A stretch of DNA of 64,000 nucleotides, from positions 921 to 64,920 of the forward strand of contig DATMYL010000022.1 in the NCBI GenBank assembly GCA_035560975.1, written 5' to 3'. The notes under the pieces were generated by a model. The model was not told the DNA's origin. It saw only the letters and a list, made by a program, of their open reading frames with translations, and did no database searches. The stretch comes from Chlorobaculum sp. Its GTDB lineage: Bacteria > Bacteroidota > Chlorobiia > Chlorobiales > Chlorobiaceae. Below, piece by piece: positions 27,312 through 44,592 of the stretch (position 1 is the first letter of the stretch; each line of letters opens with the position of its first letter). The position numbers were made by a program, and so were the translations under genes.

Positions 27312-27327
27312 AGACTTTAAGAAGAAG

Positions 27328-27470
27328 AAAGGGACCTGAAGACAAGAAAAGGGACCAAAGGGACTTAAAGGACATAAAGGACCAAAAGGGTGGAAAGAAA
27401 TTTCTTAACCTTTATGTCCCTTTGGTCCCTTAAGTCCTTTTGGTCCCATTCTTCTTTCCTCAGTCCCTTT
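27328..27470. repeat. Inverted pair of 9-bp-period GGAC/GTCC tandem arrays
   Basis: GGAC at 27352, 27361, 27370, 27379; GTCC at 27416, 27425, 27434, 27443. Confidence 0.9.
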
Positions 27471-27472
27471 TC

Positions 27473-28447
27473 TTATAATCCCAAAGAGACCAGGTCGTGG
27501 ATGTGTACCAGGCCGACCGGGTGCTGGTCGGTGTCGCAGACCAGGAGCTGGGTGATCCTGTAGGTTTCGAGGATTTCAAGGCAATTCTTTGCCAGGAGTT
27601 CAGGCGAGACGGTCTTGGGATTGCCTGTCATGACCTCCGCAGCCCTTCTGGAGAGAAAATCTCCGCCGTTCTGTACCAGCCGCCGCAGGTCACCGTCAGT
27701 GAAGATTCCTGTAAGACGGCCGTTACTGTCTGTGATTCCGGTCACGCCGTAGCGTTTCGAGGTCATTTCGAGGATGAGGTCGGAGACTGAGGCCTCTTCG
27801 TTTACGAGAGGGATAGCCTCTTCCATTGCCATCACATCGGCGACCGTCATGGTCAGTTGCCTGCCGAGAGAACCCTTGGGGTGGGTAAGCGCGAATTCGA
27901 GGTCGGTGAAGTTCTTTTTCTGCATCAGGCACATGGCCAGTGCGTCTCCCATGGCGAGCATCGCTGTAGTGGAGGTTGTCGGTGCAAGGTCGTAGGGGCA
28001 GGCCTCCTGATCGACCCCGACATCGAGCACGACATGGGCGTTCATGGCAAGATAAGAGCGTTTGTTGCCGGTGAACGCGATAATGACGGCATTCCGCTCC
28101 CTGAGCGCCGGTATTATGAAATTGAGCTCTTCGGTCATGCCGCTTTTCGACAGGCATATGACCGTATCGTTTTTAGATACCACGCCGAGATCTCCGTGCG
28201 CGGCTTCTGCCGGGTGCATGAATATGGCGGTGGTCCCGGTAGACGAGAGCGTGGCGGCTATTTTCTGGCCGACAATGCCCGATTTTCCCATTCCGGAAAT
28301 GATGATTTTGCCCTTGCACGCCAGCAGGAGTTCGATAGCCCTGGCAAAACTTTCGTCGAGCCGATCGCTCATCTTCCCGATGGCATCTGCTTCCTGCATG
28401 AGGATTTTCCTGCCCTCCGAAATGGTCTGCGTTAAATCAGTCGTCAT
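27473..28447 (-). CDS. kdsD: Arabinose-5-phosphate isomerase (KpsF/GutQ family; SIS + CBS domains)
   Basis: SGMGKSG, HPAEAAHGDLG, EACPYDLAPTTST, HPKGSLG, GIFTDGDLRR. Confidence 0.93.
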   Translation of the reverse strand: MTTDLTQTISEGRKILMQEADAIGKMSDRLDESFARAIELLLACKGKIIISGMGKSGIVGQKIAATLSSTGTTAIFMHPAEAAHGDLGVVSKNDTVICLSKSGMTEELNFIIPALRERNAVIIAFTGNKRSYLAMNAHVVLDVGVDQEACPYDLAPTTSTTAMLAMGDALAMCLMQKKNFTDLEFALTHPKGSLGRQLTMTVADVMAMEEAIPLVNEEASVSDLILEMTSKRYGVTGITDSNGRLTGIFTDGDLRRLVQNGGDFLSRRAAEVMTGNPKTVSPELLAKNCLEILETYRITQLLVCDTDQHPVGLVHIHDLVSLGL

Positions 28448-28664
28448 GGTTGATACCTCAGTTGATCAATGCGATCTTTGCTTGCGGGGAAAAACAGAGA
28501 ATATTGATTTTTTAATCCAATATTCAGCGCTATAATCAAGAAAATTACCGTTATTTTCCATAACATCGCGGGATCAGCCCGCAGGGCGCGGCATGCAGGT
28601 ACTATTTTCAGCACAGGCCGGCCCACTCCCGACAACCGTTTATATTAACCATAACGAGCGCATT

Positions 28665-29009
28665 ATGAGCTGGATCTATATTCTCGGTTTTGCATTGTCG
28701 GTCTTTTTCATGCTCATCTTTTTCCTCTCCAGATTCGTGCAGTACATGAAGACTGAGCAGAATATGCAGATCGAATCATTCAAGGATACGCTGATCGACA
28801 AGGACAATCCCGTCGGTCTCGTGGGTGAGGAGCTCGAGAAACTCAAACAGCAGCAGGCTGAGGCCCAGCAGCATCTTCGCGAGGTTATTTCCAAGATTCC
28901 CGTGATCCAGAAGGACGGCAAGTTCCAGGTCGATTACGAAGCTGTCAAAAAGCAGAAAGAGAGTTCGGGCCTTGGGCCCAATGGCTCTTCTCCAAAAGGG
29001 AACAGTTAA
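28665..29009 (+). CDS. Hypothetical membrane-anchored protein
   Basis: N-terminal TM (WIYILGFALSVFFMLIFFLS), then a coiled-coil-like segment; coding-like codon usage. Confidence 0.7.
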   Translation: MSWIYILGFALSVFFMLIFFLSRFVQYMKTEQNMQIESFKDTLIDKDNPVGLVGEELEKLKQQQAEAQQHLREVISKIPVIQKDGKFQVDYEAVKKQKESSGLGPNGSSPKGNS

Positions 29010-29034
29010 GCATATCTCCTGAGGCTGATTACGG

Positions 29035-30576
29035 ATGTTCTCCAAGCTCAAGCTCCTTGCAAAGGATACGGTCATTTACGGAGCGAGCACTATTCTCGCC
29101 AGGAGCCTCAACTACATCCTCGTCCCGCTTTACGCCAATAAACTCTCGACGTTCGATAACGGCATACAGGCGGTCGTCTACGCCAATATCGCCCTGGCCA
29201 ATGTGCTTTTCTGCTACGGGCTTGAAACCTCATATCTGAAGGTCGCTTCCGACGCCATCAAGAAAAACGAGGATGAGCGGCGCTATTTCTCAACGGCGTT
29301 CATCAGCCTGTTGGTCACCTCGACGCTTTTCGCACTTCTGATCGTCCTGTTCGCCCCGGACATAGCCTCGCTGATCGGCCTGGCACCTGAATCAGGCACG
29401 TTTATCCGTTATGCCGCACTCATCCTGTGGCTCGATACGATGCTGGTCGTTCCGTTCGCTGAAATGAGGCTGAAGAGGAAAGCCGTCCGGTTCGCACTCG
29501 CGAAAATCATGGGGGTCGTCGGGGGCGTCGTGAGTGCTTTCGTGCTTCTCATTCCCCTCAAGGCGGGTCTGGCAGGAGTGTTCATCGCCGAAGCGATCGG
29601 ATCACTCGTGAGCCTGGTCATGGTGTTGCCGGTACTGATTCGCATGAAGCCCGGTTTTTCGTTCGATCTGTACCGTGACCTTCTGCGCATCGGTCTCCCT
29701 TACGTGCCGACTGGAATTGCCGGCCTTCTCATCCATCTGATCGACAGGAACCTGCTCATCCGGATTCCCCAGAGTGATGTAGAACGTCTTTACGGCGCCG
29801 GGCTCCATGCTTCTGACATCACAGGCATCTATGGGCGCGTGGCTGCGTTCGGCGTCGTCCTGCAACTCGTCATCCAGGTGTTCAGGTTCGCATGGCAGCC
29901 TTTTTTCCTCCAGCATGCGGACGACCCTGAGGCTAAACGCCTGTTCAGGCAGGTGCTCAACCTGTCGACCATCATGGTCATCGTGCTGGCCGTGGCGGCG
30001 ACCTTTTTTGTCCCTGACCTTGTCCGTTACCATTATGGAGGGCGCCTCTATCTGCTGCCTCCTAAATACTGGATCGGCCTTTCTATCCTTCCCTGGATCT
30101 TTTTCAGTTATGTCTTCGACATGATTTCGACCAACCTTTCTGCCGGCCTCCTGATTACAGGTAACACCCGCTACCTTCCCGTGGTTACCTTCGCAGGTGC
30201 CGTCGTCACCACCGTGGCCTGCTGGATGCTGATTCCGGTCAGCGGCATGGACGGTGCGGCCATTGCGATTCTTGCCGGCACTGCGGTCATGTGCGTCACC
30301 ATGGCCTGGTTTTCGCTCAAGGTCTATCCGCTTCGCTACGACTGGGGACGTCTCAGCCTGCTTCTGGCATCCGGCCTCATGTTTGCCGCTTATCATGACG
30401 ACCTGATTCTTTACCTCGGCCGATTCGGCGTGAGCGGCGGGATGTCGCTTCTGCTGAAACTGTTGATCGTGCTGGTCTATCTCGGTCTTGGTACGCTTAT
30501 CTTCCGAAGCGAGGCTACGGCTGTGGCGCGTTTGGTGCAGGAGAAGCTTCGTCCGGCAGGGGGTTCCGGAAAGTAA
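29035..30576 (+). CDS. Polysaccharide biosynthesis flippase-like (MATE/MOP superfamily) membrane protein
   Basis: About 13-14 hydrophobic segments, '[10 protein letters not shown]...FRFAWQPFF', N-terminal 'KDTVIYG'. Confidence 0.8.
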
Positions 30577-31388
30577 TGATTCGTGTGGCCACCGTCCAGT
30601 ATACGCCCGTCCACGGCTGCAGGCAGTCGAACATCAGGGCGATCAGGAACCTGATAGAGCCGGTCGAGGCGGACATTTTCATCCTTCCTGAGCTCTGCAC
30701 GAGCGGATATTTTTTTCTGTCGAAGGGTGAACTGGCACCGCTTGCCGAGGATATCCGTTCAGAAGCCTCCAAGGCGTTCCAGCGGATGGCGGTCGCAAAG
30801 AACGCCATGATTGTCGCGGGTATGGCCGAAGCGGCGGGGGATTTGTTCTACAACTCGGTATTTGTTTTCCGCCCGGACGGCAGCGAGCCCCTGGTATACC
30901 GGAAATCGCACCTCTTTTACAAGGAATCGCTTGTTTTTGAACGGGGGGATACCGGTTTTCCGGTCATCCGGGACGAGCGGCTCGACTTGTCGGTAGGTAT
31001 CATGCTTTGCTACGACTGGCGTTTTCCGGAAGCAGCGAGGGTGCTTGCCCTTGAGGGTGCCGATATCATCGCATGTCCTTCCAACCTGGTGACCGATGCG
31101 TGGATCAAGGTCATGCCGGCGCGCGCTATTGAAAACAAGCTGTTCGTGGCCGTGGCAAATCGTGCCGGCAACGAAACAAAGATGGGGGAGACTCTGGTTT
31201 TCAAGGGCCGATCCGCCCTCTACGACCCATGGGGTGAAGCGGTCGCCGAGGCCGGCCCATCAGGTGACACGGTGCTTCTATCGGAAATCGATCACCGACT
31301 TTCCCGTGACAAGCGCTTCAATGATTTCAACGATATTTTCGTCGACAGGCGTCCTGATCTGTACGGCACTCTTTGCCGGCAACGCTGA
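30576..31388 (+). CDS. Carbon-nitrogen hydrolase (nitrilase superfamily)
   Basis: E-K-C triad: LPELCTSGY, YRKSHLF, LCYDWRFPE; TAATG overlap with the upstream gene. Confidence 0.9.
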   Translation: MIRVATVQYTPVHGCRQSNIRAIRNLIEPVEADIFILPELCTSGYFFLSKGELAPLAEDIRSEASKAFQRMAVAKNAMIVAGMAEAAGDLFYNSVFVFRPDGSEPLVYRKSHLFYKESLVFERGDTGFPVIRDERLDLSVGIMLCYDWRFPEAARVLALEGADIIACPSNLVTDAWIKVMPARAIENKLFVAVANRAGNETKMGETLVFKGRSALYDPWGEAVAEAGPSGDTVLLSEIDHRLSRDKRFNDFNDIFVDRRPDLYGTLCRQR

Positions 31389-31484
31389 CCATCGGATACT
31401 GAGTCTGTCTACGTATGGCGTTGCCTTCCTTCATACCGTCATGGCGTTAACTCGAACTCCGTTTCAACCATGACCGGCATGCGT

Positions 31485-32045
31485 TCAGCGAAGCGTGGCC
31501 GGAGGGGGTGGCGGTGGTCCGGGGTGCTTAATGCCGTGGCGACCGTCTGGCGGACCGCCTCTTATTACGGCGGAACGCTGGTACCGCATGGTATAGATAT
31601 TGCTGAGGAGCGTCCCCAGTGAATCTCGTTGAGCAGGAGTGCAGAGTTCGGCCAGCTCGTGAAAGTGGGTGGCAAGGTCTTTTTCGATCTTTGACTGGCG
31701 CTTGCCGATGCTGTCGGCGATTGAGCTCAGTTTGGCTTTGTCGGGATCGGGTTTGACCGCTTCGTTGATCAGCTCTTTTTTCAGGGCTATGATCTTCTGG
31801 ACTTCAGGCATGGTATTGCGGAAATGCTGTTCCCGGAGTTTCGTGAACTCAGCTTTCTGCTTTTCGTTCAGGGCCAGTTCCTGACTTGAATGAACGTTCC
31901 GGCTGTAATATTGTGTGACCTCGACGGAGCGAAAGCTTCGTGTGGCTATGTTCTGCCACCAGAGCACTCCCAGCAGAGTGATGTTGAGCATGACGAGCAG
32001 GACAAGAGCCGCCGTCACGAGCCGTTTCGAAGAAAGGAAATCCAT
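31485..32045 (-). CDS. Membrane-anchored periplasmic helical protein (Spy/CpxP or CnrX-like heavy-metal-sensor family)
   Basis: N-terminal TM, LNEKQKAEF and CTPAQR (LTXXQ-like), helical body, Pro-rich tail. Confidence 0.7.
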   Translation of the reverse strand: MDFLSSKRLVTAALVLLVMLNITLLGVLWWQNIATRSFRSVEVTQYYSRNVHSSQELALNEKQKAEFTKLREQHFRNTMPEVQKIIALKKELINEAVKPDPDKAKLSSIADSIGKRQSKIEKDLATHFHELAELCTPAQRDSLGTLLSNIYTMRYQRSAVIRGGPPDGRHGIKHPGPPPPPPATLR

Positions 32046-32163
32046 CTGTCACCATTAAGATTTTCGTCGCATGCCGAGGCTGTCTGTGTCTGTTCAGGCA
32101 GCCTCACGGCAATCGCCCATGGTCATGCGGCGTGTTGTTAGTTACTTATCCAATGCCCTCGTT

Positions 32164-32547
32164 TCAGCGATCTGCGGCCGACTGGTCATAATAGGAGAGA
32201 GCCGGCCCGCCATAATCCTCACTGAGCGATTCTGCCAGTCCGCTGGAAACGCTGACCGTCGATTGCGGAGTCTCATGCAGGAAAAACAGCATGGCCGAAG
32301 CGATGTTCAGGATCAGCAGCAGTCCCATGAAAGCCAGCCTTGGATTGAATCCGCCGGCGAAAGCGACGGCAAACGTGTTCCTGCTCTCCAGTGAGTCGAT
32401 GCGCTGCATCAGGTGCGCCCTGAAAAGGTGATGCACCTCAAGCCGCGGCATGTCGTCCAGTATCTTGAGCGTCTTTTCGACCTCAGCGTTATTTTGTTCA
32501 GTGCTTCTGTTCATATCGGTATCATGTTTCAAAATATATGACGACAA
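32164..32547 (-). CDS. Putative small single-TM anti-sigma factor
   Basis: Directly follows the ECF sigma; cytoplasmic 'LDDMPRLEVHHLFRAHLMQRI', one TM, short acidic tail. Alternative start at 32514. Confidence 0.6.
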   Translation of the reverse strand: MSSYILKHDTDMNRSTEQNNAEVEKTLKILDDMPRLEVHHLFRAHLMQRIDSLESRNTFAVAFAGGFNPRLAFMGLLLILNIASAMLFFLHETPQSTVSVSSGLAESLSEDYGGPALSYYDQSAADR

Positions 32548-32578
32548 TGTCCGCGGAAACTTGTGCTTTTCTTGCAGC

Positions 32579-33166
32579 TCAATTGACAGCCCGGTAATGA
32601 CGTTCCAGTCGGGACTGCAGATTTTTTTTTGCCCTGTGGATCAGCGATTCGACCGCAGGGACGGTCGTCTGGAGAATGTCGGCAATCTCCTGATTGCTGT
32701 ATCCGTCCTGCTTGCTCAGGAGGAACGCTGTTTTCTGGTTGTCGGGCAGCGCGTCGAGAGCCTCCTGCAGAACTGCAACCCGCTCCTTGTCTGTGAGTAC
32801 ATCGGCAGGATTGTCATGGTCAGGGGCCGGGATCGAATCGGCAGGATCATCGACTCCGATGATCCTTTTGAGCGAACTGAACCGTTTTTTTCGTTTCTGG
32901 CGTCGCAGGTGGTCAAGTGATTTGCTCACCGCGATCCTGTAAATCCACGTGGATAGTTTGGACTCTTCACGGAACTTGTCGATCGAACGATAGACTTCGA
33001 CGAAAACCTCTTGCGCCAGATCTTCAGCGTCTTCACGGTTGAATACGAATCGGTAGCAGGTATTGACGACCATCTCCTGATGCTCGGCGACAAGATCGCT
33101 GAAAAAGCGTTCTCCTGATGTTATTGCCTGTTGCTCCAATGGTCGAACTTTAGCGTGGGTCTGCAT
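32579..33166 (-). CDS. ECF RNA polymerase sigma factor
   Basis: Region 2 ([25 protein letters not shown]) and region 4 ([22 protein letters not shown]); no region 3. Confidence 0.93.
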
Positions 33167-33277
33167 CCTTCCCCCTGTCGCCTGAGTGTCGACATGCCGG
33201 AGGAAGGCAGCTTTGTTTCGCTTTCTGAATGATGATGTTACCTGTTGGACGACTGAAAATTCAAATCCATGCGCCGT

Positions 33278-34660
33278 TCAACCGAGTTTTGATGCAAAAG
33301 TGAGTACCGACTCCACTTTTTCCGGAGAGTCCGCTTCGCAATAGATCCTGAGCACCGGTTCTGTCCCCGACGGTCTGATCAGCAGCCAGCCACCCTCGAA
33401 ATGGTATTTGAATCCGTCGAGATTGGAGAATCCGGTCACCGGATATCCGGCAATTGCGGTGAGGCTACCGGTCGACGCGGCGGAAATGATAGCCTCTTTT
33501 TTAGCGTCGGATACACGCAGGTCGAGACGGTTGTAACAGAAAAATCCGTACTCGTCGAAAAGTTCTTCGACAAGGCCGGAGAGCGTTTTCTGCCTGCGGG
33601 CCATGATTTCGAGAAGCAGCAGTCCGATATAGACGCCATCCCGTTCCGGCAGGAAGGAGGTGATGCCGATTCCTCCGGACTCTTCGCCTCCGATGAGGAT
33701 GTCGTTTGTGGTCATCAGACGGCTGACATGCTTGAATCCGACAGGAAGCAGGTGCATTTTGAGGTCGTGTTTGCTGCAGATCCTGTCGATGACGTCGGTC
33801 AGTGCGAATGTTTTGGCAACCTCGCCCCGCTCGCCTTTCTGTTCGACGAGGTATTTGAGGATGATGGCGAACATTTTGTGCGAATCTACGAACACGCCGT
33901 TCTCGTCGAGCATGCCTACGCGGTCGGCATCTCCGTCGTTGATGATGGCGACGTCGGTCTTGACCTCGTTGAAGAAATCAACGAAATCGCCGATATACTG
34001 CGGAATCGGTTCAGGGTTGATTCCGTCGAATCCGGGATTTACCGAGCAGTGGTAGCAGTTGATCATCGATTCGTCGAGCAGGCGGGTAATGAGATCCTGT
34101 CCAGCGCCGAACATGGCGTTATGGGCGATTTTCAGCTGCGATTCCCTGATCAGCGCGAGGTCCAGCTTCGATTTGAGGTAGTCGACGTAATGGGTCTTGA
34201 TATCGGTCATCGTGATCAGGTTCGTCGCAGGGACGGCCGGATCAGCGGGATCGACCGTGAGGAGGTTCCTTTCGATCTCATCGATGACTTCGGGGTGGGC
34301 CGGACCTCCGTAGGAGGCTTTAACCTTGAACCCGTTGTATATGGGAGGATTGTGCGATGCAGTGATCATGACTCCGCCGGCAAGACGGTGGTCGCGTGTA
34401 TAGAGAGAGACTGCGGGGGTCGAAACGAAGGCGTCCGAGAGGAAAACCCTGAGGCCCATCGATGAAAGTATTTCAGCTGTATAGCGGGCAAACTCTTTCG
34501 ACATGAATCGGGTGTCGTAGCCGACGCATACTCCGTTTGCCCTGTCGGGATGGGAGAGGAAATATTTCCCGGAGGCCAGGGCGGTCAATTTGAGATTATC
34601 GTAAGTGTAGTCTTTGGCTATAATTGCCCTCCAACCATCGGTTCCGAATTTGACTTGCAT
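33278..34660 (-). CDS. Phosphoglucomutase/phosphomannomutase family protein
   Basis: FGTDGWR, TASHNP, DGDADR, GGEESGG, RPSGTEP. Confidence 0.92.
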   Translation of the reverse strand: MQVKFGTDGWRAIIAKDYTYDNLKLTALASGKYFLSHPDRANGVCVGYDTRFMSKEFARYTAEILSSMGLRVFLSDAFVSTPAVSLYTRDHRLAGGVMITASHNPPIYNGFKVKASYGGPAHPEVIDEIERNLLTVDPADPAVPATNLITMTDIKTHYVDYLKSKLDLALIRESQLKIAHNAMFGAGQDLITRLLDESMINCYHCSVNPGFDGINPEPIPQYIGDFVDFFNEVKTDVAIINDGDADRVGMLDENGVFVDSHKMFAIILKYLVEQKGERGEVAKTFALTDVIDRICSKHDLKMHLLPVGFKHVSRLMTTNDILIGGEESGGIGITSFLPERDGVYIGLLLLEIMARRQKTLSGLVEELFDEYGFFCYNRLDLRVSDAKKEAIISAASTGSLTAIAGYPVTGFSNLDGFKYHFEGGWLLIRPSGTEPVLRIYCEADSPEKVESVLTFASKLG

Positions 34661-34785
34661 TCTGTCGTATATTTGATATAATGATGAAAAAAAATGGGTG
34701 CATTTGCCTGGTTATTCTCCACTTCCGGAGCATACGCGTATATTAAAATACAGTTTCCTGTTCGATGATGCAATTTCAGCAGCAA

Positions 34786-35931
34786 ATGCGCCAAAAGAAG
34801 CTCTTTGTGCTCGCTGGCGAAGTTTCCGGCGATCTTCATGCTGCAGGTCCGGTACGCGAACTTCTCAAGGCCCGTCCTGAGACCAGGATTTTCGGCGTTG
34901 GCGGTACGAAGTTGCGCGAGCTTGGTGCCGATCTGCTCTATACGACTGACCAGATGAGCATCATGGGGTTCGTCGAAGTGCTTCGTCACGCTTCCTTTCT
35001 GCGCAAGGTTATTCGTGACCTCAAGCAGGCGGTGAAACGTGAAAAGCCCGATGCAGCCCTCCTGATAGACTATCCCGGCATGAACCTCCACATGGCGGCT
35101 TTTCTGCGTGAACTCGGTATTCCCGTGATCTACTACATTTCACCCCAGGTCTGGGCATGGAAGGAGCGTAGAGTCGAGAAAATCCGGGCATATGTCGACC
35201 GGCTGCTCGTAATATTCGATTTCGAAGTGGAGTTTTATGGCAGGCATGGCATTAAAGCCGAGTTCGTCGGCAATCCGGTGGTCGAGGAGCTTGCAGATCT
35301 CGAGTTTCCTTCAAGGCAGCAATTTCTTGAGAGGATGGGTATCGATCCGCAGTGCCGCCTGGTCGGACTGCTTCCGGGGAGTCGCAGGCAGGAGATCGAA
35401 AAGATATTTCCCGAAATGCTCGGTGCGGCACTGCGTCTTCAGCAGACGGGCAGAACGGCATTTCTCCTCGGCAAGTCCCCTCATATCGACATTTCGATCT
35501 ACGAGCGCCACATCCGTAAAGCCGGCCTTCAACCGGTGATCTGCGGATCGTACGAGGTGATGCATTACAGTGACCTGGAGCTGGTGACATCCGGCACGGC
35601 AACCCTCGAGTCGCTCTGCTTCGGCGTGCCCATGGTTGTGCTCTACAAGACGGCCCCGCTGAACTACCTGATCGGCAAACGTCTGGTCAAACTTAAGAAC
35701 ATCGCACTTGCCAATATCGTCGCGTGCGGCCTGCATTCGGAACGGCAGGTAGTGCCTGAACTGATCCAGGCCAGGGCCAATGCCGTCGAAATAAGCCGGA
35801 AGGCGCAGGAGATACTCGAGGACGGCAAGGTATCATCGGCAATGCGGGAAGGACTCCGTGAAGCCCGGTCGCGCCTCTCCTCGGATTCTCCGTCCCGTCA
35901 CGTCGCCGCCGTACTGCTCGAATACCTCTAA
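34786..35931 (+). CDS. lpxB: Lipid-A-disaccharide synthase
   Basis: AGEVSGDLHA, IDYPGMN, YYISPQVWAW, LLPGSRRQE, SGTATLE. Confidence 0.96.
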   Translation: MRQKKLFVLAGEVSGDLHAAGPVRELLKARPETRIFGVGGTKLRELGADLLYTTDQMSIMGFVEVLRHASFLRKVIRDLKQAVKREKPDAALLIDYPGMNLHMAAFLRELGIPVIYYISPQVWAWKERRVEKIRAYVDRLLVIFDFEVEFYGRHGIKAEFVGNPVVEELADLEFPSRQQFLERMGIDPQCRLVGLLPGSRRQEIEKIFPEMLGAALRLQQTGRTAFLLGKSPHIDISIYERHIRKAGLQPVICGSYEVMHYSDLELVTSGTATLESLCFGVPMVVLYKTAPLNYLIGKRLVKLKNIALANIVACGLHSERQVVPELIQARANAVEISRKAQEILEDGKVSSAMREGLREARSRLSSDSPSRHVAAVLLEYL

Positions 35932-35941
35932 ACGACGCCCT

Positions 35942-36241
35942 ATGAAAAACGTAATCGATTTTCTGACAGGAAATCCTGTGATCTTTGGTATCGCCGTGAT
36001 CGTCTCGCTCATGATAGTCTTTTCATTCGCGAAACGGATCATCCATTTCATTCTTGTACTCATAGCCATCGCCGTGCTCTATATCGCCTGGGTGACCTGG
36101 CATGGCGGCAACCCCGTGGAGAAAGCCGGCAAGGCCGAACAATCGTTCAAGGGAGCAGTTCACAAGGGTGATGGGATGCTGAAGACGATCCAGGGGTTGT
36201 TCAAGCATGACGAACCGGCTCCGGGAAAGGATAGGGAATGA
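35942..36241 (+). CDS. Small hypothetical membrane protein
   Basis: Two TM segments followed by a charged tail; starts 10 nt after lpxB. Confidence 0.7.
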   Translation: MKNVIDFLTGNPVIFGIAVIVSLMIVFSFAKRIIHFILVLIAIAVLYIAWVTWHGGNPVEKAGKAEQSFKGAVHKGDGMLKTIQGLFKHDEPAPGKDRE

Positions 36242-36366
36242 CGGGGAGGGAGCCCGGCTCTCTCAGGGATCTGCGTTCCATCCGCAAATGACGAAAGGGC
36301 GGTTCGCGATCCGCCCCGCCACAAGACGATTAATAGCGGCGCCCTTATGAGACAGCTCCCTTTTTT

Positions 36367-38334
36367 TCAGGATTTCCTTTCGCTGATCGCTCCGGTCGGG
36401 CAGTTCTCGATCAGTTCGGCATAGGCGACGGCCTGACCTTCGCCACTCGATTCGATTGTGCGCACACAGATGCCGCAATCGACACATTTTTCCCTCTCGA
36501 ACCTGACAACTCCAGAGCTGTCGATGCTGAAATTCTCATGGGTTTCAGAGCCGGGGCAGGACGCGACCCCGAATTCGGTCGCCAGGTCGCGTAACCGGCA
36601 GTCATCGACCGCACGGCATCTGCACTGGAGGCAGCGAAACGCCTCGTTTCGGGCATCTTCAGGAGTGTAGCCGGAAACCGCTTCGCTGAAGCTTCGGCGC
36701 CTCTCCATGGCGGGAAGTTCCGGTACCGGTATCCTCGCAGCGGGCCGCGCACGCTCGTAGAAACGGCTCGGCGCCTGGTCGCGCTCTCCATAGGAAGAGT
36801 TGAACGCCCGAACGGGGCCTTCTGGCGAAAGGCCCCTGAGGAACCGGTCTATGGCTTCGGCAGCAAGCCTGCCCTGTTCGACGGCCCTTATGGCCAGGTC
36901 GGGGCCGGTCACGCAGTCTCCGCCGGCAAAAATTTCGGGGACATCCGTCTGCATCGAGCCGGATCTGACGCGGACGTTGCCGTTCCTGTCGACGCCGATG
37001 CCAGGCGCGGCTTCTGCGGGCAGACGCACGAACTGGCCTGTAGCCGTGATGAGCGTGTCGGCCGTTATGGTGAATTCGGAGCCCTCGACAGGGAGAGGTC
37101 GCCTCCGCCCGCTGGCGTCGGCTTCACCGAGACGCATCGCGATCGCCCTGACGGCAAGTCCGTCGGCCGTTTTTTCGATTTCCAGGGGTGCCGACAGCAG
37201 GAGAAGCTCGACTCCTTCGGCGACAGCCTCCTCGATTTCGATCCGGTTCGCAGGCATCTCGTTTCTTCCCCTCCTGTACATCACGGTAACCGATTCGGCT
37301 CCGAGCCTCAGTGCAGTCCGTGCCGCATCGATGGCCGTGTTGCCGCCGCCGACCACGATGACCGATCGACCGGGGTTCTGCGCGGCGCCGGATGCGGCGT
37401 CGCGGAGGAATCTGATGCCGCTGACCACACCCTCCAGCTCTTCACCCGGGATGTCGAGTGGTGAGGCTGCGGCTGCACCGATGCTGAGAAAGAGGGCGTC
37501 ATGATCCTGTTTGAGGTGCGGCCAGTCGATGTCCCTGCCGAACTCCGTCGAAAGGCTGAACCGGGCCCCCATTTCCACGATGGGTTCTACGTCTGCGTCG
37601 ATGACCGCATCGGGCAGCCGGAACTTCGGGATGCCGTAACGCATCATGCCGCCGGCCTTCTCGTTTGCGTCGACGATGGTGACCTCGTGACCCGCGACGA
37701 GCAGGAACCATGCGGCAGTAAGCCCGGCAGGGCCTGCACCGACGATGGCCACTTTTTTGCCTGAGGCAGCCTGTCGTTCAGGAAGCGACGGTTCATCAGC
37801 GGTTGCCTGGTCGGCAGCGAAGCGTTTCAGGGCGCAGATCGAAACAGGCTCGTCGACGCCGTGCCTCCGGCAGGCGTCTTCGCACGGGGCGGGGCAGACC
37901 CGGCCGAGGATTCCCGGCAGAGGGATGGTCTGCCTGATGATCCTGACAGCGTCAACGTCGCGACCGGAAGCGATGGCCGCGACGAATCCGGGTATGTTGC
38001 ATCCTGCAGGGCAGGAGAGCTCGCAGGGCCCGAGGCAGTCGCCGCAATGAACGGCGATGATGCGTTCGAGGCTCTGGCGTCGCATGGCATCGAGTTCCGC
38101 ATTCGAAGTTTCGACGACCATCCCTTCGGATACTGCGGTGTTGCAGCCCGGAATGAAACGGTTCTGTCCCTTGATCTCCACGATGCAGAGCCAGCAGGAG
38201 CCTCTGGACGGCAGTGCTTCATGGAAACAGAGGGTGGGGATATGGATGCCGTTGCCGCGGGCGGCTTCGAGGATCGAGAGTCCGGGTTCTACCGATATTC
38301 TTCGGCCGTCGATGGTGAGTGTGACGGGTTTCAT
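36367..38334 (-). CDS. Multi-Fe-S FAD/NAD(P)H oxidoreductase (NuoG/HydA-type 2Fe-2S N-terminus fused to a GltD/SudA-like core)
   Basis: IPTLC...SCWLC...C (2Fe-2S), CGDCLGPCELSCP...CGRVCPAPCEDAC, GAGPAG, GGGNTA, AGGD, RCLQCRC, CVDCGIC...CPTGAI. Confidence 0.85.
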   Translation of the reverse strand: MKPVTLTIDGRRISVEPGLSILEAARGNGIHIPTLCFHEALPSRGSCWLCIVEIKGQNRFIPGCNTAVSEGMVVETSNAELDAMRRQSLERIIAVHCGDCLGPCELSCPAGCNIPGFVAAIASGRDVDAVRIIRQTIPLPGILGRVCPAPCEDACRRHGVDEPVSICALKRFAADQATADEPSLPERQAASGKKVAIVGAGPAGLTAAWFLLVAGHEVTIVDANEKAGGMMRYGIPKFRLPDAVIDADVEPIVEMGARFSLSTEFGRDIDWPHLKQDHDALFLSIGAAAASPLDIPGEELEGVVSGIRFLRDAASGAAQNPGRSVIVVGGGNTAIDAARTALRLGAESVTVMYRRGRNEMPANRIEIEEAVAEGVELLLLSAPLEIEKTADGLAVRAIAMRLGEADASGRRRPLPVEGSEFTITADTLITATGQFVRLPAEAAPGIGVDRNGNVRVRSGSMQTDVPEIFAGGDCVTGPDLAIRAVEQGRLAAEAIDRFLRGLSPEGPVRAFNSSYGERDQAPSRFYERARPAARIPVPELPAMERRRSFSEAVSGYTPEDARNEAFRCLQCRCRAVDDCRLRDLATEFGVASCPGSETHENFSIDSSGVVRFEREKCVDCGICVRTIESSGEGQAVAYAELIENCPTGAISERKS

Positions 38335-38397
38335 GGTCAGTGTCGTTTCATGGTTGCCTTGCGGCTATGCCTTACTGCCCGCTGACTCAACGCACGA

Positions 38398-39393
38398 TTA
38401 TGCGAGAGGTGCAGGGGAGCCATGGCCGTATGTCCTTTCGATATGCCGGGCGACTTGCTCGAGGTGCCACATCGGAGTCGAGGTGGCGCCGCAGATTCCT
38501 ACGCTCTCCACAGACCCTCCCTCGGGAGTCGTGAACCATTCAGGCCGGATTTCGTCTATGTCTTCGATGAAGTAGCTGTGCGGGTTGGCCTCCCTGCAGA
38601 TCAGGTAGAGTACCTGGCCGTTCGAGCTTTTTTTACCGGCCACGAAGACGATGCAGCTGTTGGCGAGAGCGAAATCCCGCAGCTTGTCGTTGCGGCTCGA
38701 GACCTGGCGGCAGATGGAGTCCTTGAAGACCAGGGTCGGCATGGGGCGAACGCCGGTCATGTCGGCCGTGATGTCGATATCCCTGATAGCCATCCATGAT
38801 CTTGCCGCTCCATTGCCTTCGACGGTGTTTCCGGCGAAAAGGCGTTCGAGGTTCGACTTCAGTTCGTAAAAGCCGGGCACGTCCATGGTGGTCTGGGAGA
38901 TCAGAGCCGTTTTCCGGTTCAGGTCGAGCGTGGCAGTTTCCGAAGGGTCAGAGAGGTCGGCATGTTTGATGATGACGCCCTGGTTTGCGCACTGGCCGTT
39001 GATGCCGATCACCTCCGGATGGGTGCTCTTGCCGTAGATGACGACCTGGTAGCCGAGTTCGTGCAGCAGGCGGGCCGTCCTCTGCAGCTTCGAAACGACC
39101 GGGCATGTGGTGTCGGTGATCGCAAGGTTGTTCTTCCTCGCCGTTTCATAGGTAGACGGAGGTTCGCCGTGGGCGCGGATCAGAACGCCCGCATCTTTGA
39201 GTTCATCGAACGTTTTTTCGTCGATGGTCGTGAGCCCGATCGCCTCGAGCCGGCGGACTTCGACTTCGTTGTGGACCACATCCCCCAGGGAATAGAGGCT
39301 GCCGGACTCCCTGAGCTTCTCCTCAGCGACATGGATCGTGCCCTGCACGCCGATGCAGAATCCGGATGATGTTCTGTCAAGGTTTACTTTCAC
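38398..39393 (-). CDS. ispH: 4-hydroxy-3-methylbut-2-enyl diphosphate reductase
   Basis: GFCIGV, VHN, RAHG, DTTCPVV, QTT, SICRQV, KSSN, GATSTP; GTG start at 39393. Confidence 0.95.
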
Positions 39394-39473
39394 GTGAGCT
39401 TCGTTCGGTCTAAGGGGACGGTCGTCGGTAATTCTGGTTCTGAGGCGGAAAGATACGAAAAGAGAAGGAAAAT

Positions 39474-39518
39474 GACGGACGTAATGGACTGAATGGACGT
39501 CATGGACGTGATGGACTT
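39474..39518 (+). repeat. 9-bp-period ATGGAC array (5 units)
   Basis: GGAC at 39477, 39486, 39495, 39504, 39513. Confidence 0.9.
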
Positions 39519-39553
39519 GATAAAACACGACCATCGAGCCATCTATCTTTCAT

Positions 39554-39630
39554 TATCAACTATCAACTATCAACTATCAACTGTCAACTATCCATTGTCC
39601 ATTATCCATTATCCATTGTCCATTATCCCT
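39554..39630 (+). repeat. 7-bp tandem array (11 units) grading from TATCAAC to TATCCAT/TGTCCAT
   Basis: TATCAAC x4, TGTCAAC, TATCCAT, TGTCCAT, TATCCAT x2, TGTCCAT, TATCCCT. Confidence 0.92.
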
Positions 39631-39635
39631 TTCCC

Positions 39636-40454
39636 CTACATTCCGACGAGCTCAACGTCCGGCATCTCCGTTCCCATGAAAAGGCGGTAAAGTTCGCGGA
39701 ACTTCTGGGGAAGGTCGCTGACCATGAGGTGCGGCATTGCCTGTCCGGTGCCGGTGTTCAGCATACCTTCGGCCGAGAGCAGCTCGCTGGCTTTGCAGGC
39801 GACGGCTTCGGCTGAATCGATAATCCTGATGCCGGGTCCGGTGATGCTTTCGATCATGCCGCGGAGGATAGGGTAGTGAGTGCAGCCGAGCACCAGGGTG
39901 TCGATCTGTCTGGAGAGCAGCTCCGAAAGGTACTCCTCGGCAACGAGGCGGGTGGCCGCATGGTCGATGAAACCCTCTTCGGCAAGCGGTACGAACAGCG
40001 GGCAGGCTTTCGAGAAGACCTCGAGGTTGCTGTCCAGTTCATTGATGGCGCAGGCGTACGCGTTCGAAAAGATGGTCGCCTGGGTGCCGATGACGCCGAT
40101 GCGCCCGGTACGGGTCTGCCGAGCGGCGAGCTCCGCACCTGCCTTCAGGACGCCGATGACCGGGATGTCGCCGCTTGTCTGCTGGACCACGTCGAGCGCG
40201 AGGGCCGACACGGTGTTGCAGGCCACGATGATCATTTTCGGTTGATGCTTCATCAGGAGTTCGGTGTCCTCGCGGCCGTATTTCCTGATGGTGACCTGGG
40301 ATTTCGGTCCGTAAGGTACGCGGGCCGTATCGCCGAAATAGATGATCCGCTCGGAAGGAAGGCAAGCCTGGACAGCCTTGACGACGGTCAGGCCGCCGAT
40401 GCCCGAGTCGAAAATTCCGATCGGGCTGTCAGGCGAAATCTTGTGCTGCGGCAT
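39636..40454 (-). CDS. murI: Glutamate racemase
   Basis: [31 protein letters not shown]; start placed at MPQHK. Confidence 0.96.
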
Positions 40455-40490
40455 GAGATTGTTACGATGTGAAGGAAGCGCAGTTCCCTC

Positions 40491-40527
40491 TTTGTCCTTT
40501 ATGTCCCTTAAGTCCCTTTGGTCCTTT
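40491..40527 (-). repeat. Single-arm 9-bp-period GTCC array (4 units)
   Basis: GTCC at 40494, 40503, 40512, 40521; reverse complement nearly matches the left arm at 27352-27382. Confidence 0.88.
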
Positions 40528-40541
40528 TCCCCTGAGTTCAA

Positions 40542-41633
40542 CTACACATTGAACCGGAACACAATAACATCACCGTCTTTGACAATATACTCCTTTCCTT
40601 CGGAACGCATTTTGCCGGCCTCCCGGACCTTCTGCTCGGAGCCGAGGGCGATCAGGTCGGCGTAGTGCATGACCTCTGCCCTGATGAACCCCTTTTCGAA
40701 ATCGGAGTGGATGGCCGCGGCGGCCTCAGGTGCGGCGGCACCCTTGCGGATGGTCCATGCATGGACCTCCTTGACGCCGGCCGTGAAGTAGTTGTGCAGG
40801 CCCAGCAGGTCGTAGGCTGTCCTGATCAGGCGGTCGAGGCCCGACATTTCGAGGCCGAGGCTTTCGAGGAAGTCCGGGCGCTCCTCTTCGGGCAGTTCCG
40901 CGATGTCGGCTTCAGCCTTTGCGCTGATGATCAGCATTTTCGAGCCGCTCGCAGCAGCGATCTCCGCGACCTTCGCGGTATACTCGTTGCCGTCCGGCAG
41001 GTCGTTTTCGGATACATTGGCCGCATACAGTTCCGGCTTGGCAGTCAGCAGGAAGAACTGTTTCGCCATTTCGCGCTCTTCTTCGGTCTCGAGGATCCGG
41101 CGCACCGGTATGCCTTCACCGAGTCCGGCCACGATCTTTTCGCCCAGATCGACGAGCTGCTGCTGCTCCTTCTCCTTGCGGGCGCCTTTTCTGAGTTTGT
41201 CCATCCTCTTCTCCATGCTGTCGAGATCGGCGAGCATGAGTTCGGTTTCGATGGTGGCGATATCGCCGGCAGGGTCGATCTTGCCTTCGACATGGATGAT
41301 GTTCGGGTCGTCGAAACAGCGAACGACGTGGATGATCGCATCGACCTCCCTGATGTGCGACAGGAACTGGTTGCCGAGGCCTTCGCCTTTGCTTGCGCCC
41401 CTGACGAGGCCGGCGATATCGACGATTTCGAGTACTGCAGGAACGAGCACCGGCGTTTTGACGACGTTGGCGATCTCCTGGAGTCGATGGTCGGGAACCA
41501 GAACGCTGCCTACGTTCGGTTCGATGGTGCAGAACGGATAATTGGCAGCTTCGGCCTGTTTGGCCGTGATGGCATTGAAGAGCGTTGATTTGCCGACGTT
41601 GGGCAAACCGACAATGCCGCAGCGAAGTGACAT
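40542..41633 (-). CDS. ychF: Redox-regulated ATPase YchF
   Basis: [52 protein letters not shown]. Confidence 0.98.
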
Positions 41634-41747
41634 GGGTGGGCGCGTTTGTTGACGAAAAGGCCGCATCTTCTGCGGTTTTAACATGTACTCAATATGTTTG
41701 GAAAAAGCAAATATTTTTTATAAAATTACAGGCTAAGTCAAAATGCT

Positions 41748-42446
41748 GTGGAGAGTCATATCGGAAAGAAAAATATCATTATTGCCATAGACGGTCCGGC
41801 CGCTTCGGGTAAAAGCACTACGGCACGGATACTGGCCGGCAAGCTGGGTTATATCTATATTGATACCGGTGCAATGTACCGGTCAGTGACGCTCAGGGTG
41901 ATACGGGCAGGGCTGCTCGACGAGCTGCGCCGGGACGCCGCAAGGGTTTCCGGGATACTGCACGATATGACGATCGAATTCCGAGGCGACCGTGTATTCC
42001 TGGACGGGGAGGATGTTTCCGAAGCGATCAGGGAGAACACAGTCAGCCGGGAGGTCAGTTTCATCAGTTCGCTCAAACCGGTCAGGGACAGGCTGCGGGA
42101 ACTTCAGCAGCAGATGGGTGCGGCACGGGGAGTCGTCATGGACGGCCGGGATATCGGCACGGTCGTGTTCCCGGAAGCCGAGCTCAAGATTTTCCTTGTG
42201 GCCGATCCGCGCGAGCGGGCAAGGCGTCGTCATGCCGAGCTGACGCTGAAAGGCGGCAGTACCGGAATTCCGACCGTCGAAGAGCTCGAAGAGGAGATCA
42301 GGAAGCGGGACCGCGATGACGAGGAGCGCACTCTTGCGCCCCTGAAACGCCATCCCGATGCCGTCGTGGTCGATACGTCCACCACGACCATAGAGGAGCA
42401 GGTCGGTCGAGTTTACGACCTGGCCATGCAAATAGTTGGGGAGTAA
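41748..42446 (+). CDS. cmk: Cytidylate kinase
   Basis: [33 protein letters not shown]. Confidence 0.96.
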
Positions 42447-42562
42447 AGCCGAAGGAGTGTTATCTTCGGTAGATTTTTTTGTAGATGCATCAATAACCTA
42501 AAACCTGCAGCTTAAATCTCTCGCGGCTGCCGGTAAATCACAAGAGAGGAAGGAAAACATTA

Positions 42563-44317
42563 ATGTCAGAAACACAAACGCTGGAAAAGCTGCAGCCCAA
42601 AGTCGTGCCGGGAAGAAAGAAGATCAAGATTTTCGCCAGTTACGAGCCCGCTGAGCTCGCGCAGATGGAGTCGCTCTATACGAGCACCCTCTCCGAGATC
42701 ACCGAAGAGGAGATCGTAAAGGGACGTATCGTCTCGATCTCGAACAAGGATGTCACCATCGACGTAGGCTTCAAGTCCGAAGGTATCGTTTCGCTTCTCG
42801 AGTTCAGGGACGACGACGAGATCAAGGTCGGAGACGAGGTCGAAGTTTACCTCGAGAACATCGAGGACAAGATGGGTCAGCTCATCCTCTCCAAGAGGAA
42901 AGCCGACGTTCTCAGGATCTGGGACAAGATCTATGATTCAATCGAGAACGACACCATCATCAACGGCAAGATCATCAACAGGGTCAAGGGCGGCATGACG
43001 GTTTCCCTGTCCGGCGTCGAAGCGTTCCTTCCAGGTTCGCAGATCGATGTCAAGCCGGTCCGCGACTTCGATGCCCTCGTCGGAAGGACGATGGACTTCA
43101 GGGTCGTCAAGATCAACCCGGTTACACAGAACATCGTCGTCAGCCACAAGGTCATCCTCGAAGAGGAGTATGCGGCCAAGCGTGAGGAAATGCTCGCCAA
43201 CATCAAGGTCGGCATGGTCCTCGAAGGTACAGTCAAGAACATCACCGATTTCGGTATTTTCGTCGATCTCGGCGGTCTTGACGGCCTCGTTCATATCACC
43301 GATATCACCTGGGGCAGGATCAACCATCCGTCCGAAGTGGTCGAGCTCGATCAGCCGATCAAGGTCGTTGTCGTCGGCTTCGACGAGAACACCAAGAGGG
43401 TCTCTCTCGGCATGAAGCAGCTCGAAGCCCATCCGTGGGAAAATATCGAAATCAAATACCCTGTCGGCATCAAGGCGAAAGGCCGCGTTGTGTCGATCAC
43501 CGATTACGGCGCATTCGTCGAGATCGAGAAAGGAATCGAAGGCCTTGTCCACATCTCTGAAATGAGTTGGACGCAGCACATCAAGCATCCGAGCCAGTTC
43601 GTGTCGCTCGATCAGGAAGTCGAATGTGTCATCCTGAACATCGACAAGGAGCACACCAAGCTGTCGCTTTCCATGAAGCGCGTCAACGAAGATCCGTGGA
43701 TCGCCCTCTCCGAGAAATACATCGAGAGTTCGCTGCATAAGGGCGTAGTGAGCAACATCACCGATTTCGGTGTGTTTGTCGAGCTCGAGCCCGGCGTCGA
43801 CGGCCTGGTCCACATCTCCGACCTTTCCTGGACCAAGAAGATCCGCCATCCCAGCGAGCTGGTGAAGAAGAACCAGGAGCTCGAAGTCAAGGTGCTGAAG
43901 TTCGACGTCAACGCACGCAGGATCGCTCTCGGCCACAAACAGATCAACAACGATCCCTGGGGCGAGTTCGAGCAGAAGTACGCAGTAGGAGCTGAAACTC
44001 CCGGTCAGATTTCCCAGATCATCGAGAAGGGCGTCATCGTGATCCTTCCTGGCGATGTAGACGGCTTCGTGCCGGTCTCGCATCTCCTTCAGGGCGGTGT
44101 CAAGGACATCCACTCATCATTCAAGGTGGGTGACGAACTTCCGCTGAGGGTCATCGAGTTCGACAAGGAGAACAAGCGTATCATCCTTTCCGCCCTTGAG
44201 TACTTCAAGGACAAGAACAAGGAAGAGATCGAGGCTTACCTCCTGGCTCACCCGAACGAGAAAAAAGAGATCGAGGACGCCAGCGCCGAGCTGGAGCCCC
44301 AGCCGAAAGGCCGCTGA
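42563..44317 (+). CDS. rpsA: 30S ribosomal protein S1
   Basis: Six S1 repeats ([44 protein letters not shown]). Confidence 0.98.
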
Positions 44318-44339
44318 TCACTTTTATTACAGTTGTAGT

Positions 44340-44377
44340 AACAAAAAACCCTTCCCGCAACGGAAGGGTTTTTTGTT
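44340..44377. terminator. Intrinsic terminator after cmk-rpsA
   Basis: AACAAAAAACCCTTCC-CGCAAC-GGAAGGGTTTTTTGTT. Confidence 0.88.
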
Positions 44378-44412
44378 TTAGGGGAGGTGGGGGGAAGAGA
44401 AGAAAATGTGGG

Positions 44413-44550
44413 AAATGGACTGAATGGACGTAATGGACAGAATGTGGGAATGGACGTAATGGACAAGAAAAGAGAAGAAAATGCAAAGAGCAAAGACTGT
44501 TTGGCGCGTCCATAACGTCCATTCAGTCCATTACGTCCATCAAGTCCATT
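44413..44550. repeat. Inverted pair of 9-bp-period ATGGAC/GTCCAT arrays
   Basis: GGAC at 44417, 44426, 44435, 44452, 44461; GTCC at 44508, 44517, 44526, 44535, 44544. Confidence 0.9.
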
Positions 44551-44592
44551 CTTTTCGCGCCTTCTCTTCGCGCCATTCTTCCCGCGCCCTCT

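Follow-up and report, generated by a model that had tools for sequence, protein, structure and literature searches.

Dispersed arrays of a 9-nucleotide GGAC-core unit in a Chlorobaculum genome and their link to four-helix-bundle genes

Four intergenic loci in a 64,000-nucleotide stretch of Chlorobaculum sp. (contig DATMYL010000022.1, positions 921 to 64,920; hereafter the window) consist of short tandem arrays whose units share a GGAC or GTCC core. Our analysis showed that these loci belong to a family with about 60 gene-less copies in the genome, situated at transcript 3′ ends and operon junctions and usually built of a GGAC arm followed by a GTCC arm, and that arrays of the same units bracket genes for four-helix-bundle (4HB) proteins. 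On balance, we consider it probable that the four loci are gene-less arms of the repeat cassette of such genes, namely those of the subfamily with the TIGR04258 suffix, within the 23S rRNA intervening sequence (IVS)/S23p/Avd family.

Four-helix-bundle genes and the arrays that flank them

Two unit types make up the family in the genome of the window (G000; 2.53 Mb, 138 contigs, 94% complete): a T type, [G/T][G/T]N-AT-GGAC, and a G type, N[A/T]A-A[A/G]-GGAC. The two subtypes proposed in the original prediction, which was made from the letters of the window, are real and represent ATGGAC and AARGGAC units. The genome contains three TIGR02436 genes, two of them with the TIGR04258 suffix, and all three are bracketed by tandem arrays:

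C52 18766-19455, 4HB suffix gene, bracketed by T-type arrays, unit ATGGACNNN
C42 7319-7903, 4HB suffix gene, bracketed by G-type arrays, unit AARGGACNN
C25 59159-59524, short 4HB gene without the suffix, bracketed by GAATGMT heptamers

The flanks of the C52 gene hold nine and five units upstream and three downstream, all of the AT type (17/17), and those of the C42 gene hold 11 periodic cores of the types AA-, AG- and CG-GGAC; relative to these C52-type and C42-type units, GTGGACNNN is a non-cognate unit. GAATGMT heptamers are the commonest 7-mer array family of this genome, and the three foremost array families match the three 4HB genes (3/3). It had been suggested that similar arrays flank four-helix-bundle and GxxExxY genes in other bacteria. 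The first part was borne out by the two suffix genes, each bracketed by one unit type; GxxExxY genes (TIGR04256) are absent from the genome.

The two suffix genes scored 27.5 and 33.9 bits with TIGR02436 (cut-off 24) and 77.5 and 64.1 with TIGR04258 (cut-off 40), and the Pfam PF05635 scores of their proteins were under the gathering score. AlphaFold2 modelled the C42 protein (pLDDT 87) as a core of four helices with an insert between helices 3 and 4 and a basic helix at the C terminus. Among PDB structures, the model matched 2gsc, Xanthomonas S23p, best (probability 1.0, TM 0.81), and it also matched 8ub7_B, which is Avd in the RNA-protein complex of a diversity-generating retroelement (TM 0.70). 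A sequence search of PDB chains with this protein gave no match, so the relationship was found by fold search only. Judged by sequence and modelled fold, the suffix proteins belong to the 23S-rRNA-IVS/S23p/Avd family. No reverse transcriptase or template/variable repeat pair adjoins the 4HB genes, and the adenines of the units are conserved, with no sign of adenine mutagenesis. Among six aligned protein lineages we found no simple residue-to-base pattern in the helix 2-3 loop, which is nearly identical between the TG- and TA-unit lineages. The C52 gene also carries an array inside its coding sequence: five ATGGAC units lie in frame at C52 19225-19264 (L011), in the helix 3-4 loop, and a sister lineage with GT-flanked genes has an equivalent internal array in the opposite orientation, read as STKSTTSTS.

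The association was also found among relatives. In a survey of 121 genomes of the taxonomic family, 26 of them from the genus of the window, four-unit GGAC arrays were present in 47 genomes (22 of the 26 within the genus) and suffix-type genes in 63. Of 46 sampled suffix genes, 32 had 9-mer arrays within ~200 bp, 18 of them on both sides, against a background of 10 arrays in 72 kb of more distant flank. The unit type is homogeneous within the flanks of each gene (AT, GT, TG, TA or AR), and protein lineages group by flanking unit type. Short 4HB genes of relatives are bracketed by heptamers.

Across phyla, we took the best 80 of 586 stretches encoding relatives of the gene. GGAC/GTCC at exact 9-bp spacing occurred in a flank at 44 of these 80 loci, with 254 periodic cores as compared with 4-44 for control tetramers, and 78 of the 107 tandem arrays near these genes had period 9. 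The loci come from Verrucomicrobiota, Bacteroidota, Planctomycetota, Hydrogenedentota, Acidobacteriota, Nitrospirota, Proteobacteria and other phyla. Array period follows protein subfamily, being 9 for suffix-type and 7 for short 4HB genes.

Other unit families were seen in the same setting. Relatives carry 9-mers with a GATC core (e.g. GATCTGACC) in the same gaps, in L023, L052 (G008), L065 (G041), L044 (G002) and L039 (G026), and G008 has a 4HB gene with a zinc-ribbon tail that is flanked by AGATCAGAC units.

The arrays of the window and of the genome

The features of the window are the following (strand in parentheses):

27320..27389 (+), left (GGAC) arm of an AARGGAC-type inverted pair, directly 3′ of the sucD stop codon; cores at 27332, 27352, 27361, 27370 and 27379
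27390..27411 (no strand), spacer/loop between the left and right arms of this pair
27412..27470 (+), right (GTCC) arm of the pair, which ends at the stop codon of kdsD; cores at 27416, 27425, 27434, 27443 and 27463
39474..39518 (+), arm of five ATGGAC-type units in the murI-ispH gap (murI upstream, on the − strand); five GGAC cores within 39477-39516
39551..39628 (+), facing heptamer arm of 11 units, TATCAAC grading to TATCCAT/TGTCCAT
40491..40527 (−), single arm made up of four AARGGAC-type units, located between the stop of ychF and the start of murI; four GTCC cores within 40494-40524 as read on the + strand
44335-44375, rpsA intrinsic terminator
44405..44464 (+), ATGGAC-type inverted pair, left (GGAC) arm, lying downstream of this terminator; five GGAC cores (44417-44464) plus degenerate AATGTGGGA units
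44507..44550 (+), right (GTCC) arm of this pair, facing era; five cores within 44508-44547

Direct reading and Tandem Repeats Finder (TRF), which reported period 9 at 4/4 loci, both confirmed the four predicted arrays of GGAC/GTCC cores. The spacing is 9 bp throughout, save 18-bp steps across degenerate units. One of these is the irregular step that had been described as a 17-bp gap in the left arm at 44.4 kb; the irregularity stands, and its length is that of an 18-bp double step across degenerate AATGTGGGA. All four loci lie between protein-coding genes (sucD, kdsD, ispH, murI, ychF, rpsA and era) and not inside a 23S rRNA helix, and, as had been claimed, the window holds no gene that explains them, since no cognate gene is found there.

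The near-identical stretches noted between loci were found as well. The 39.5 kb array and the reverse complement of the right arm at 44.5 kb share 32 nt with one mismatch, and the left arm at 27.3 kb and the reverse complement of the 40.5 kb array share 31 nt with one mismatch. As described, the left flanks are purine-rich and CATTCTT follows the last unit of the right arm. The outer units of the left arm at 27.3 kb decay into AAGAAGAAA, and the loop of this pair contains an inner motif, GGT..AAGAA/TTCTTAACC, which is common to other G-type pairs.

The two inverted pairs of the window are predicted to fold strongly on either strand, at −59 kcal/mol (+) and −65 (−) for the 27.3 kb pair (z −10 and −14) and at −68 and −65 kcal/mol for the 44.4 kb pair (z −8.5 and −9.9). 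At 39.5 kb, the TGTCCAT units of the heptamer arm are complementary to ATGGAC, and the 9-mer and heptamer arms together give a weak fold (−42 and −55 kcal/mol, z about −3). The arm at 40.5 kb, whose GGAC strand is the − strand and thus the mRNA sense, has neither a partner arm nor a stable fold.

The 9-mer plus 7-mer layout of the 39.5 kb locus was also seen at C137 554-680 of the same genome and in the orthologous murI-ispH gap of G008, G047 and G058. Its heptamer is the AGTTGAT/AACTATC unit, which also brackets short 4HB gene(s) in relatives. On the − strand, the heptamers at 39551-39628 present promoter-like TTGACA/TTGATA-N17-GATAAT sites upstream of ispH. Directly after the right arm of the rpsA-era pair, a 13-bp unit (CCATTCTTTTCGCG) is repeated three times (44546-44588).

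Searching the whole assembly, we found 87 strict arms or, with small tolerances, 100 arrays at 65 loci with 429 units. The arrays are far commoner than chance would give: there were 176 three-unit matches as compared with 0-2 in five Markov-3 simulated genomes, and 89 four-unit matches, whereas the pattern in reverse gave 1. Genome-wide, TRF counted 98 arrays of period 9, almost all of the two GGAC types, and 44 of period 7, with the GAATGMT family foremost. Most arms have 3, 4 or 5 strict cores (35, 36 and 19 arrays, respectively), with degenerate outer units. Neighbouring units usually differ at three free positions, and the cores are invariant. With Rfam at the gathering score, the window gave tRNAs only, and 20 array loci gave only sub-threshold microRNA-like hairpin look-alikes.

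Twenty-four inverted pairs were identified, every one with the GGAC arm first and the GTCC arm second, so that a purine-rich 5′ arm is read from either strand; two are hybrids that join both unit types. Predicted folds range from −37 to −98 kcal/mol, most of them being more stable than −50; over 21 pairs, z averages −8 on each of the two strands. Paired arms would thus form an imperfect hairpin of 40-60 bp on either strand. The units had been described as shuffled rather than mirrored, and statistically this holds: outside the cores, the two arms of a locus complement each other no better (G type 0.74, T type 0.63) than do arms taken from different loci (0.75 and 0.63, respectively). A model of mirror hairpins with compensatory pairing between the two arms of a locus was therefore rejected. 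This indicates that the conserved object is a unit family with a GGAC core, and not a locus-specific stem.

Three further kinds of repeat were noted in this genome. A hyper-expanded GTCCATTCC array of at least 27 units (C94 9533-9959, L013) produces long false open reading frames (ORFs; GRNGRN..., HSVHSG...). A composite repeat, found at C121 36233-36400, at C99 12690-12850 and in about 14-20 further copies (L001, L003), has four components, namely a promoter-like TATAAAATTGCAAGG, 3-4 GGAC units, ~95 nt of conserved sequence and a terminator, GGCTGCCTCA...TGAGACAGCC. It resembles a small RNA (sRNA) gene; as a structured sRNA it was rejected, the element (the ‘class-2’ array plus 95 nt) having a weak consensus fold of −7.9 kcal/mol and almost no covariation. 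A repeat of ~230 bp with ~35 copies of ~90% identity, often at contig ends, is represented by C121 36344-36575 (L001 545-776).

Unit type across the genus and the explanations of the arrays

Within the genus, matches to three consecutive ATGGAC units are found only in G000, G053, G035, G008, G058 and G056 (43-88 each), with 0-1 in the other 20 genomes, and matches to three GTGGAC units only in 13 other genomes (6-56 each), with 0-1 in the AT genomes. Five of the six AT genomes have the lineage of genes with AT flanks, whose close sister lineage is GT-flanked.

We compared four orthologous gaps in up to 20 genomes. For each of them (sucD-kdsD, ychF-murI, murI-ispH and rpsA-era), some relatives have an empty gap and others a gap occupied by the resident unit type; with the 65 loci of the genome, this answers the question of further copies and of filled and empty sites that had been raised with the prediction. 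In the sucD-kdsD gap (27312-27472 of the window), five genomes have only a bidirectional terminator, the gap being 83-115 bp long, and five have the terminator plus arrays. G000, G053 and G008 have arrays only, and the canonical bidirectional terminator is missing (relatives compared for it: L029, L030, L036, L039 and L044). The ychF-murI junction is 14-17 bp in 6 genomes and longer in 11 others, mostly by G-type, TGGGAC-type or other GGAC arrays, by GATC-core 9-mers in G008 and G041, and by a 204-bp insert of another kind in G056. In the rpsA-era gap, the AT genomes carry AT pairs, G014 and G002 carry GT pairs, and G047 carries an AAGGAC arm. In the sequences compared, then, unit type follows the genome and not the locus. 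Point mutation in place would not suffice for this, since every unit of both arms at dozens of loci would need changing. The recurrent filling of the same gaps with the resident unit type calls for re-copying or conversion from a genome-specific source, or else for very strong concerted selection.

The cognate 4HB protein is the most plausible factor that could give the unit its meaning. It is a candidate reader because the core is invariant with three free positions per unit, because periodicity follows the protein subfamily, because arms have 4-5 units and relatives of the protein form pentameric rings, and because the array population is specific to the gene lineage. We predict that the arrays are cis sites for a ring-forming cognate 4HB protein, each subunit of which would take one unit; arms of 4-5 units would fit this. 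The arrays may be re-copied or converted from a master copy of the genome itself into a limited set of permissive gaps. In RNA, paired arms would form long double-stranded stems that are candidate cut sites of RNase III, by analogy with the intervening sequences of rRNA, and such cutting would determine or buffer the 3′ ends of mRNAs; the genome contains an RNase III homologue. We infer both the reading of the 9-nt unit by the protein and the cutting of the hairpins.

Taken further, the suffix 4HB proteins may be ring-shaped sequence-specific readers of tandem 9-nt units (N3-N2-GGAC), one per subunit, which together with the arrays form a self-propagating system that places sites of its own at transcript 3′ ends and at operon junctions. 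A change of specificity, as between the sister AT and GT lineages, would then lead to replacement of the whole array population. We put this forward tentatively, as a possibility that is more likely to fail than to hold.

Of the roles first suggested for the arrays, footprints of an element whose gene lies elsewhere comes closest. The link to 4HB genes supports it, but not the term mobile element, since no transposase-like enzyme, target-site duplication or movement was seen. With regard to miniature inverted-repeat transposable elements, filled and empty orthologous gaps exist, the arms are inverted, and G-type ends have TTAAGAA in common; no duplication could be read at filled versus empty gaps, because the genomes compared are too diverged. 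Arrays as binding sites for a protein, the second suggestion, are compatible with our results, and we would prefer this option if the binder is the 4HB protein.

Several observations weigh against assigning the arrays to 4HB genes, beginning with the lack of a transposase-like enzyme or a target-site duplication found with them. Hybrid pairs fold poorly, as does the single arm at 40.5 kb, which implies that the hairpin is not the whole story. G035 (88 ATGGAC matches) and G038 are rich in arrays, and no suffix-type gene was found in either. Arrays may thus persist without the gene, or the gene may be unassembled; in the G035 assembly, the whole locus of the AT-type gene is missing, the upstream gene included. 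G017 has the gene with flanking units and no dispersed GGAC arrays. The match of dispersed arrays and resident genes is confounded by shared ancestry; the six AT genomes may be one clade that represents one evolutionary event, and the AT/GT contrast may likewise rest on few independent events. Linkage alone could account for the agreement of a gene with the units that flank it.

The same three genomes, with many well-formed arrays and no detected suffix gene in two of them and the reverse in G017, suit the view that the arrays are selfish or neutral hairpin repeats, spread and homogenised by host recombination, slippage or hairpin-directed processes without any part played by the 4HB protein, in which case the 4HB genes would be passengers that sit in hairpin loops and inherit the arms. 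So does the lack of an enzyme associated with the arrays, and perfect tandem runs and the C94 array indicate that slippage operates. However, slippage alone would give identical neighbours, whereas real neighbours differ at the free positions around fixed cores. Moreover, passengers would not be expected to show the mutual exclusivity of AT and GT or the 3/3 match of array families and genes, nor would the period be expected to track the protein subfamily (9 for suffix-type, 7 for short). We regard this explanation as unlikely, though worth keeping in view.

The position of the arrays bears on another explanation, namely that they serve the host as 3′-end elements like those of the REP (repetitive extragenic palindrome)/BIME kind, acting as two-way transcription barriers, mRNA 3′ stabilisers or insulators of convergent genes and maintained by host selection, with an incidental link to 4HB genes. 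By crude gene calls, 22 intergenic loci lie in convergent, 13 in co-directional and 1 in divergent gaps (expected 6.8, 21.2 and 8.0; p about 4e-10), and many arms begin 15-40 nt past a stop codon. The enrichment of convergent and depletion of divergent gaps would fit such a role, as would the very stable hairpins on both strands. An array hairpin fills the sucD-kdsD gap in G000, G053 and G008, where relatives have only the canonical bidirectional terminator, and most genomes that have arrays carry them in the gaps that follow sucD and rpsA. However, the arms are followed by CAUUCUU and no U run, and lacking a U-tract they are not terminator-like; a terminator scan that flagged the rpsA terminator flagged no arm. 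Many arrays adjoin an intact canonical terminator, e.g. that of rpsA, and several relatives have empty gaps. The invariant GGAC core, the 9-nt period, the unpaired single arms and the non-mirror arms are left unexplained by a hairpin function, and the 3′-end bias could equally reflect purging of insertions from promoter regions. We consider a host function of this kind improbable.

Still less probable, in our estimate, is that a protein other than that of the 4HB genes, a global regulator or a nucleoid protein, binds the arrays as double-stranded DNA, as was proposed for paired tandem 7-9-mers in Geobacter metallireducens. A periodic invariant core and opposite-strand pairs at variable distance fit the description given for that species (PMC2700814). 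On the other hand, no candidate regulator gene is linked to the arrays, the consistent physical link being to 4HB genes, and a position at 3′ ends rather than promoters would be odd for a transcription factor. Finally, sponges of the CsrA/RsmA type or Shine-Dalgarno mimics, proposed from the ANGGA in every unit, can be practically dismissed, since CsrA (PF02599) had no match in the 94%-complete assembly and was found in control genomes, which excludes a Csr-type sponge, and since half of the arms present the GUCC strand whichever way they are transcribed. The arrays may have a role in RNA, as hairpins, that is more general than the CsrA form.

Comparison with known systems

Observations of dispersed tandem 7-9-mers in several phyla go back decades and have had no explanation. 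The PF05635 family (S23p, IVS protein and Avd-like proteins) is very widespread, and we know of no function for it outside diversity-generating retroelements. The link described here ties this uncharacterised protein family to a repeat of its own and can be tested at the bench. The genus offers a clean natural experiment, with two unit types in one genome, each with its own gene, sister lineages whose genomes are mutually exclusive for ATGGAC and GTGGAC, and housekeeping gaps that are empty or filled depending on the species. The arrays also matter for annotation: they break assemblies, yield false ORFs and in-frame peptide repeats, and can replace canonical terminators.

In our literature search, no paper connecting dispersed arrays with 4HB genes was found, the nearest being PMC4990558 and PMC2700814. 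The description of the arrays as an undescribed repeat system therefore holds for the genus and for the link between gene and dispersed arrays, whereas related pieces are in print.

The first of these concerns the intervening sequences of 23S rRNA. The IVS of Coxiella burnetii contains an S23p ORF, a 28-bp stem and three tandem heptamers by the ORF; it is excised by RNase III and was proposed to be selfish, and ORF-bearing 23S IVSs are also cited for Leptospira and Brucella (PMC4990558). S23p of Xanthomonas (2gsc) is a toroidal homopentamer (PMC4990558). The present elements share with these the gene family (S23p/PF05635 4HB, with a model matching the 2gsc pentamer) and the arrangement of a gene between inverted arms that form a long stem, with short tandem repeats beside the ORF. 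They differ in that they lie between protein-coding genes instead of rRNA helices, their arms are arrays of a 9-nt unit instead of a 28-bp stem with three heptamers, their gene has the TIGR04258 suffix, and they have about 60 gene-less copies.

In Geobacter metallireducens, gene-less paired tandem 7-9-mers were read as DNA operators, i.e. putative binding sites of global regulators (PMC2700814). The likeness lies in dozens of intergenic loci, 3-5 tandem units, opposite-strand pairs at variable distance and several unit families per genome, and the arms of mostly 3-5 units, 24 inverted pairs and 65 loci found here are of this kind. However, the units and the phylum are different and no link to 4HB genes was made in that work, whereas the present families each have a cognate 4HB gene and their loci lie at 3′ ends.

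The short tandemly repeated repetitive (STRR) heptamers of cyanobacteria and the TAACTGA repeats of Beggiatoaceae (PMC4679880) are likewise abundant, lineage-specific intergenic tandem repeats of a short unit. In the present arrays, by contrast, the period is 9 and not 7, inverted pairing is the rule, the GGAC core is common across phyla, and an association with a gene is demonstrated. Avd of diversity-generating retroelements (8ub7) is of the same fold family, and its pentamer works in an RNA-protein complex; unlike it, the present genes have no adjacent reverse transcriptase or template/variable repeat pair.

The best functional analogy is with REP, BIME and REPIN elements and their REP-associated tyrosine transposases (RAYTs), whose defining features are lacking here. 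In both systems, families of extragenic palindromes are specific to the genome and lie chiefly in convergent or co-directional gaps, the cognate gene is present once with its own type of repeat on its flanks, and the repeat differs between related genomes. However, the present arms are tandem 9-mers, whereas a REP is a single 20-40-bp palindrome with a GTAG foot, and the product of the cognate gene is a small helical bundle instead of a Y1 transposase; to our knowledge, no catalytic activity has been described for it. If the suffix 4HB proteins do read the 9-nt units as we tentatively propose, the system would be a counterpart of RAYT/REPIN whose protein is helical and non-enzymatic, and it would include the intervening sequences of rRNA as one special case.

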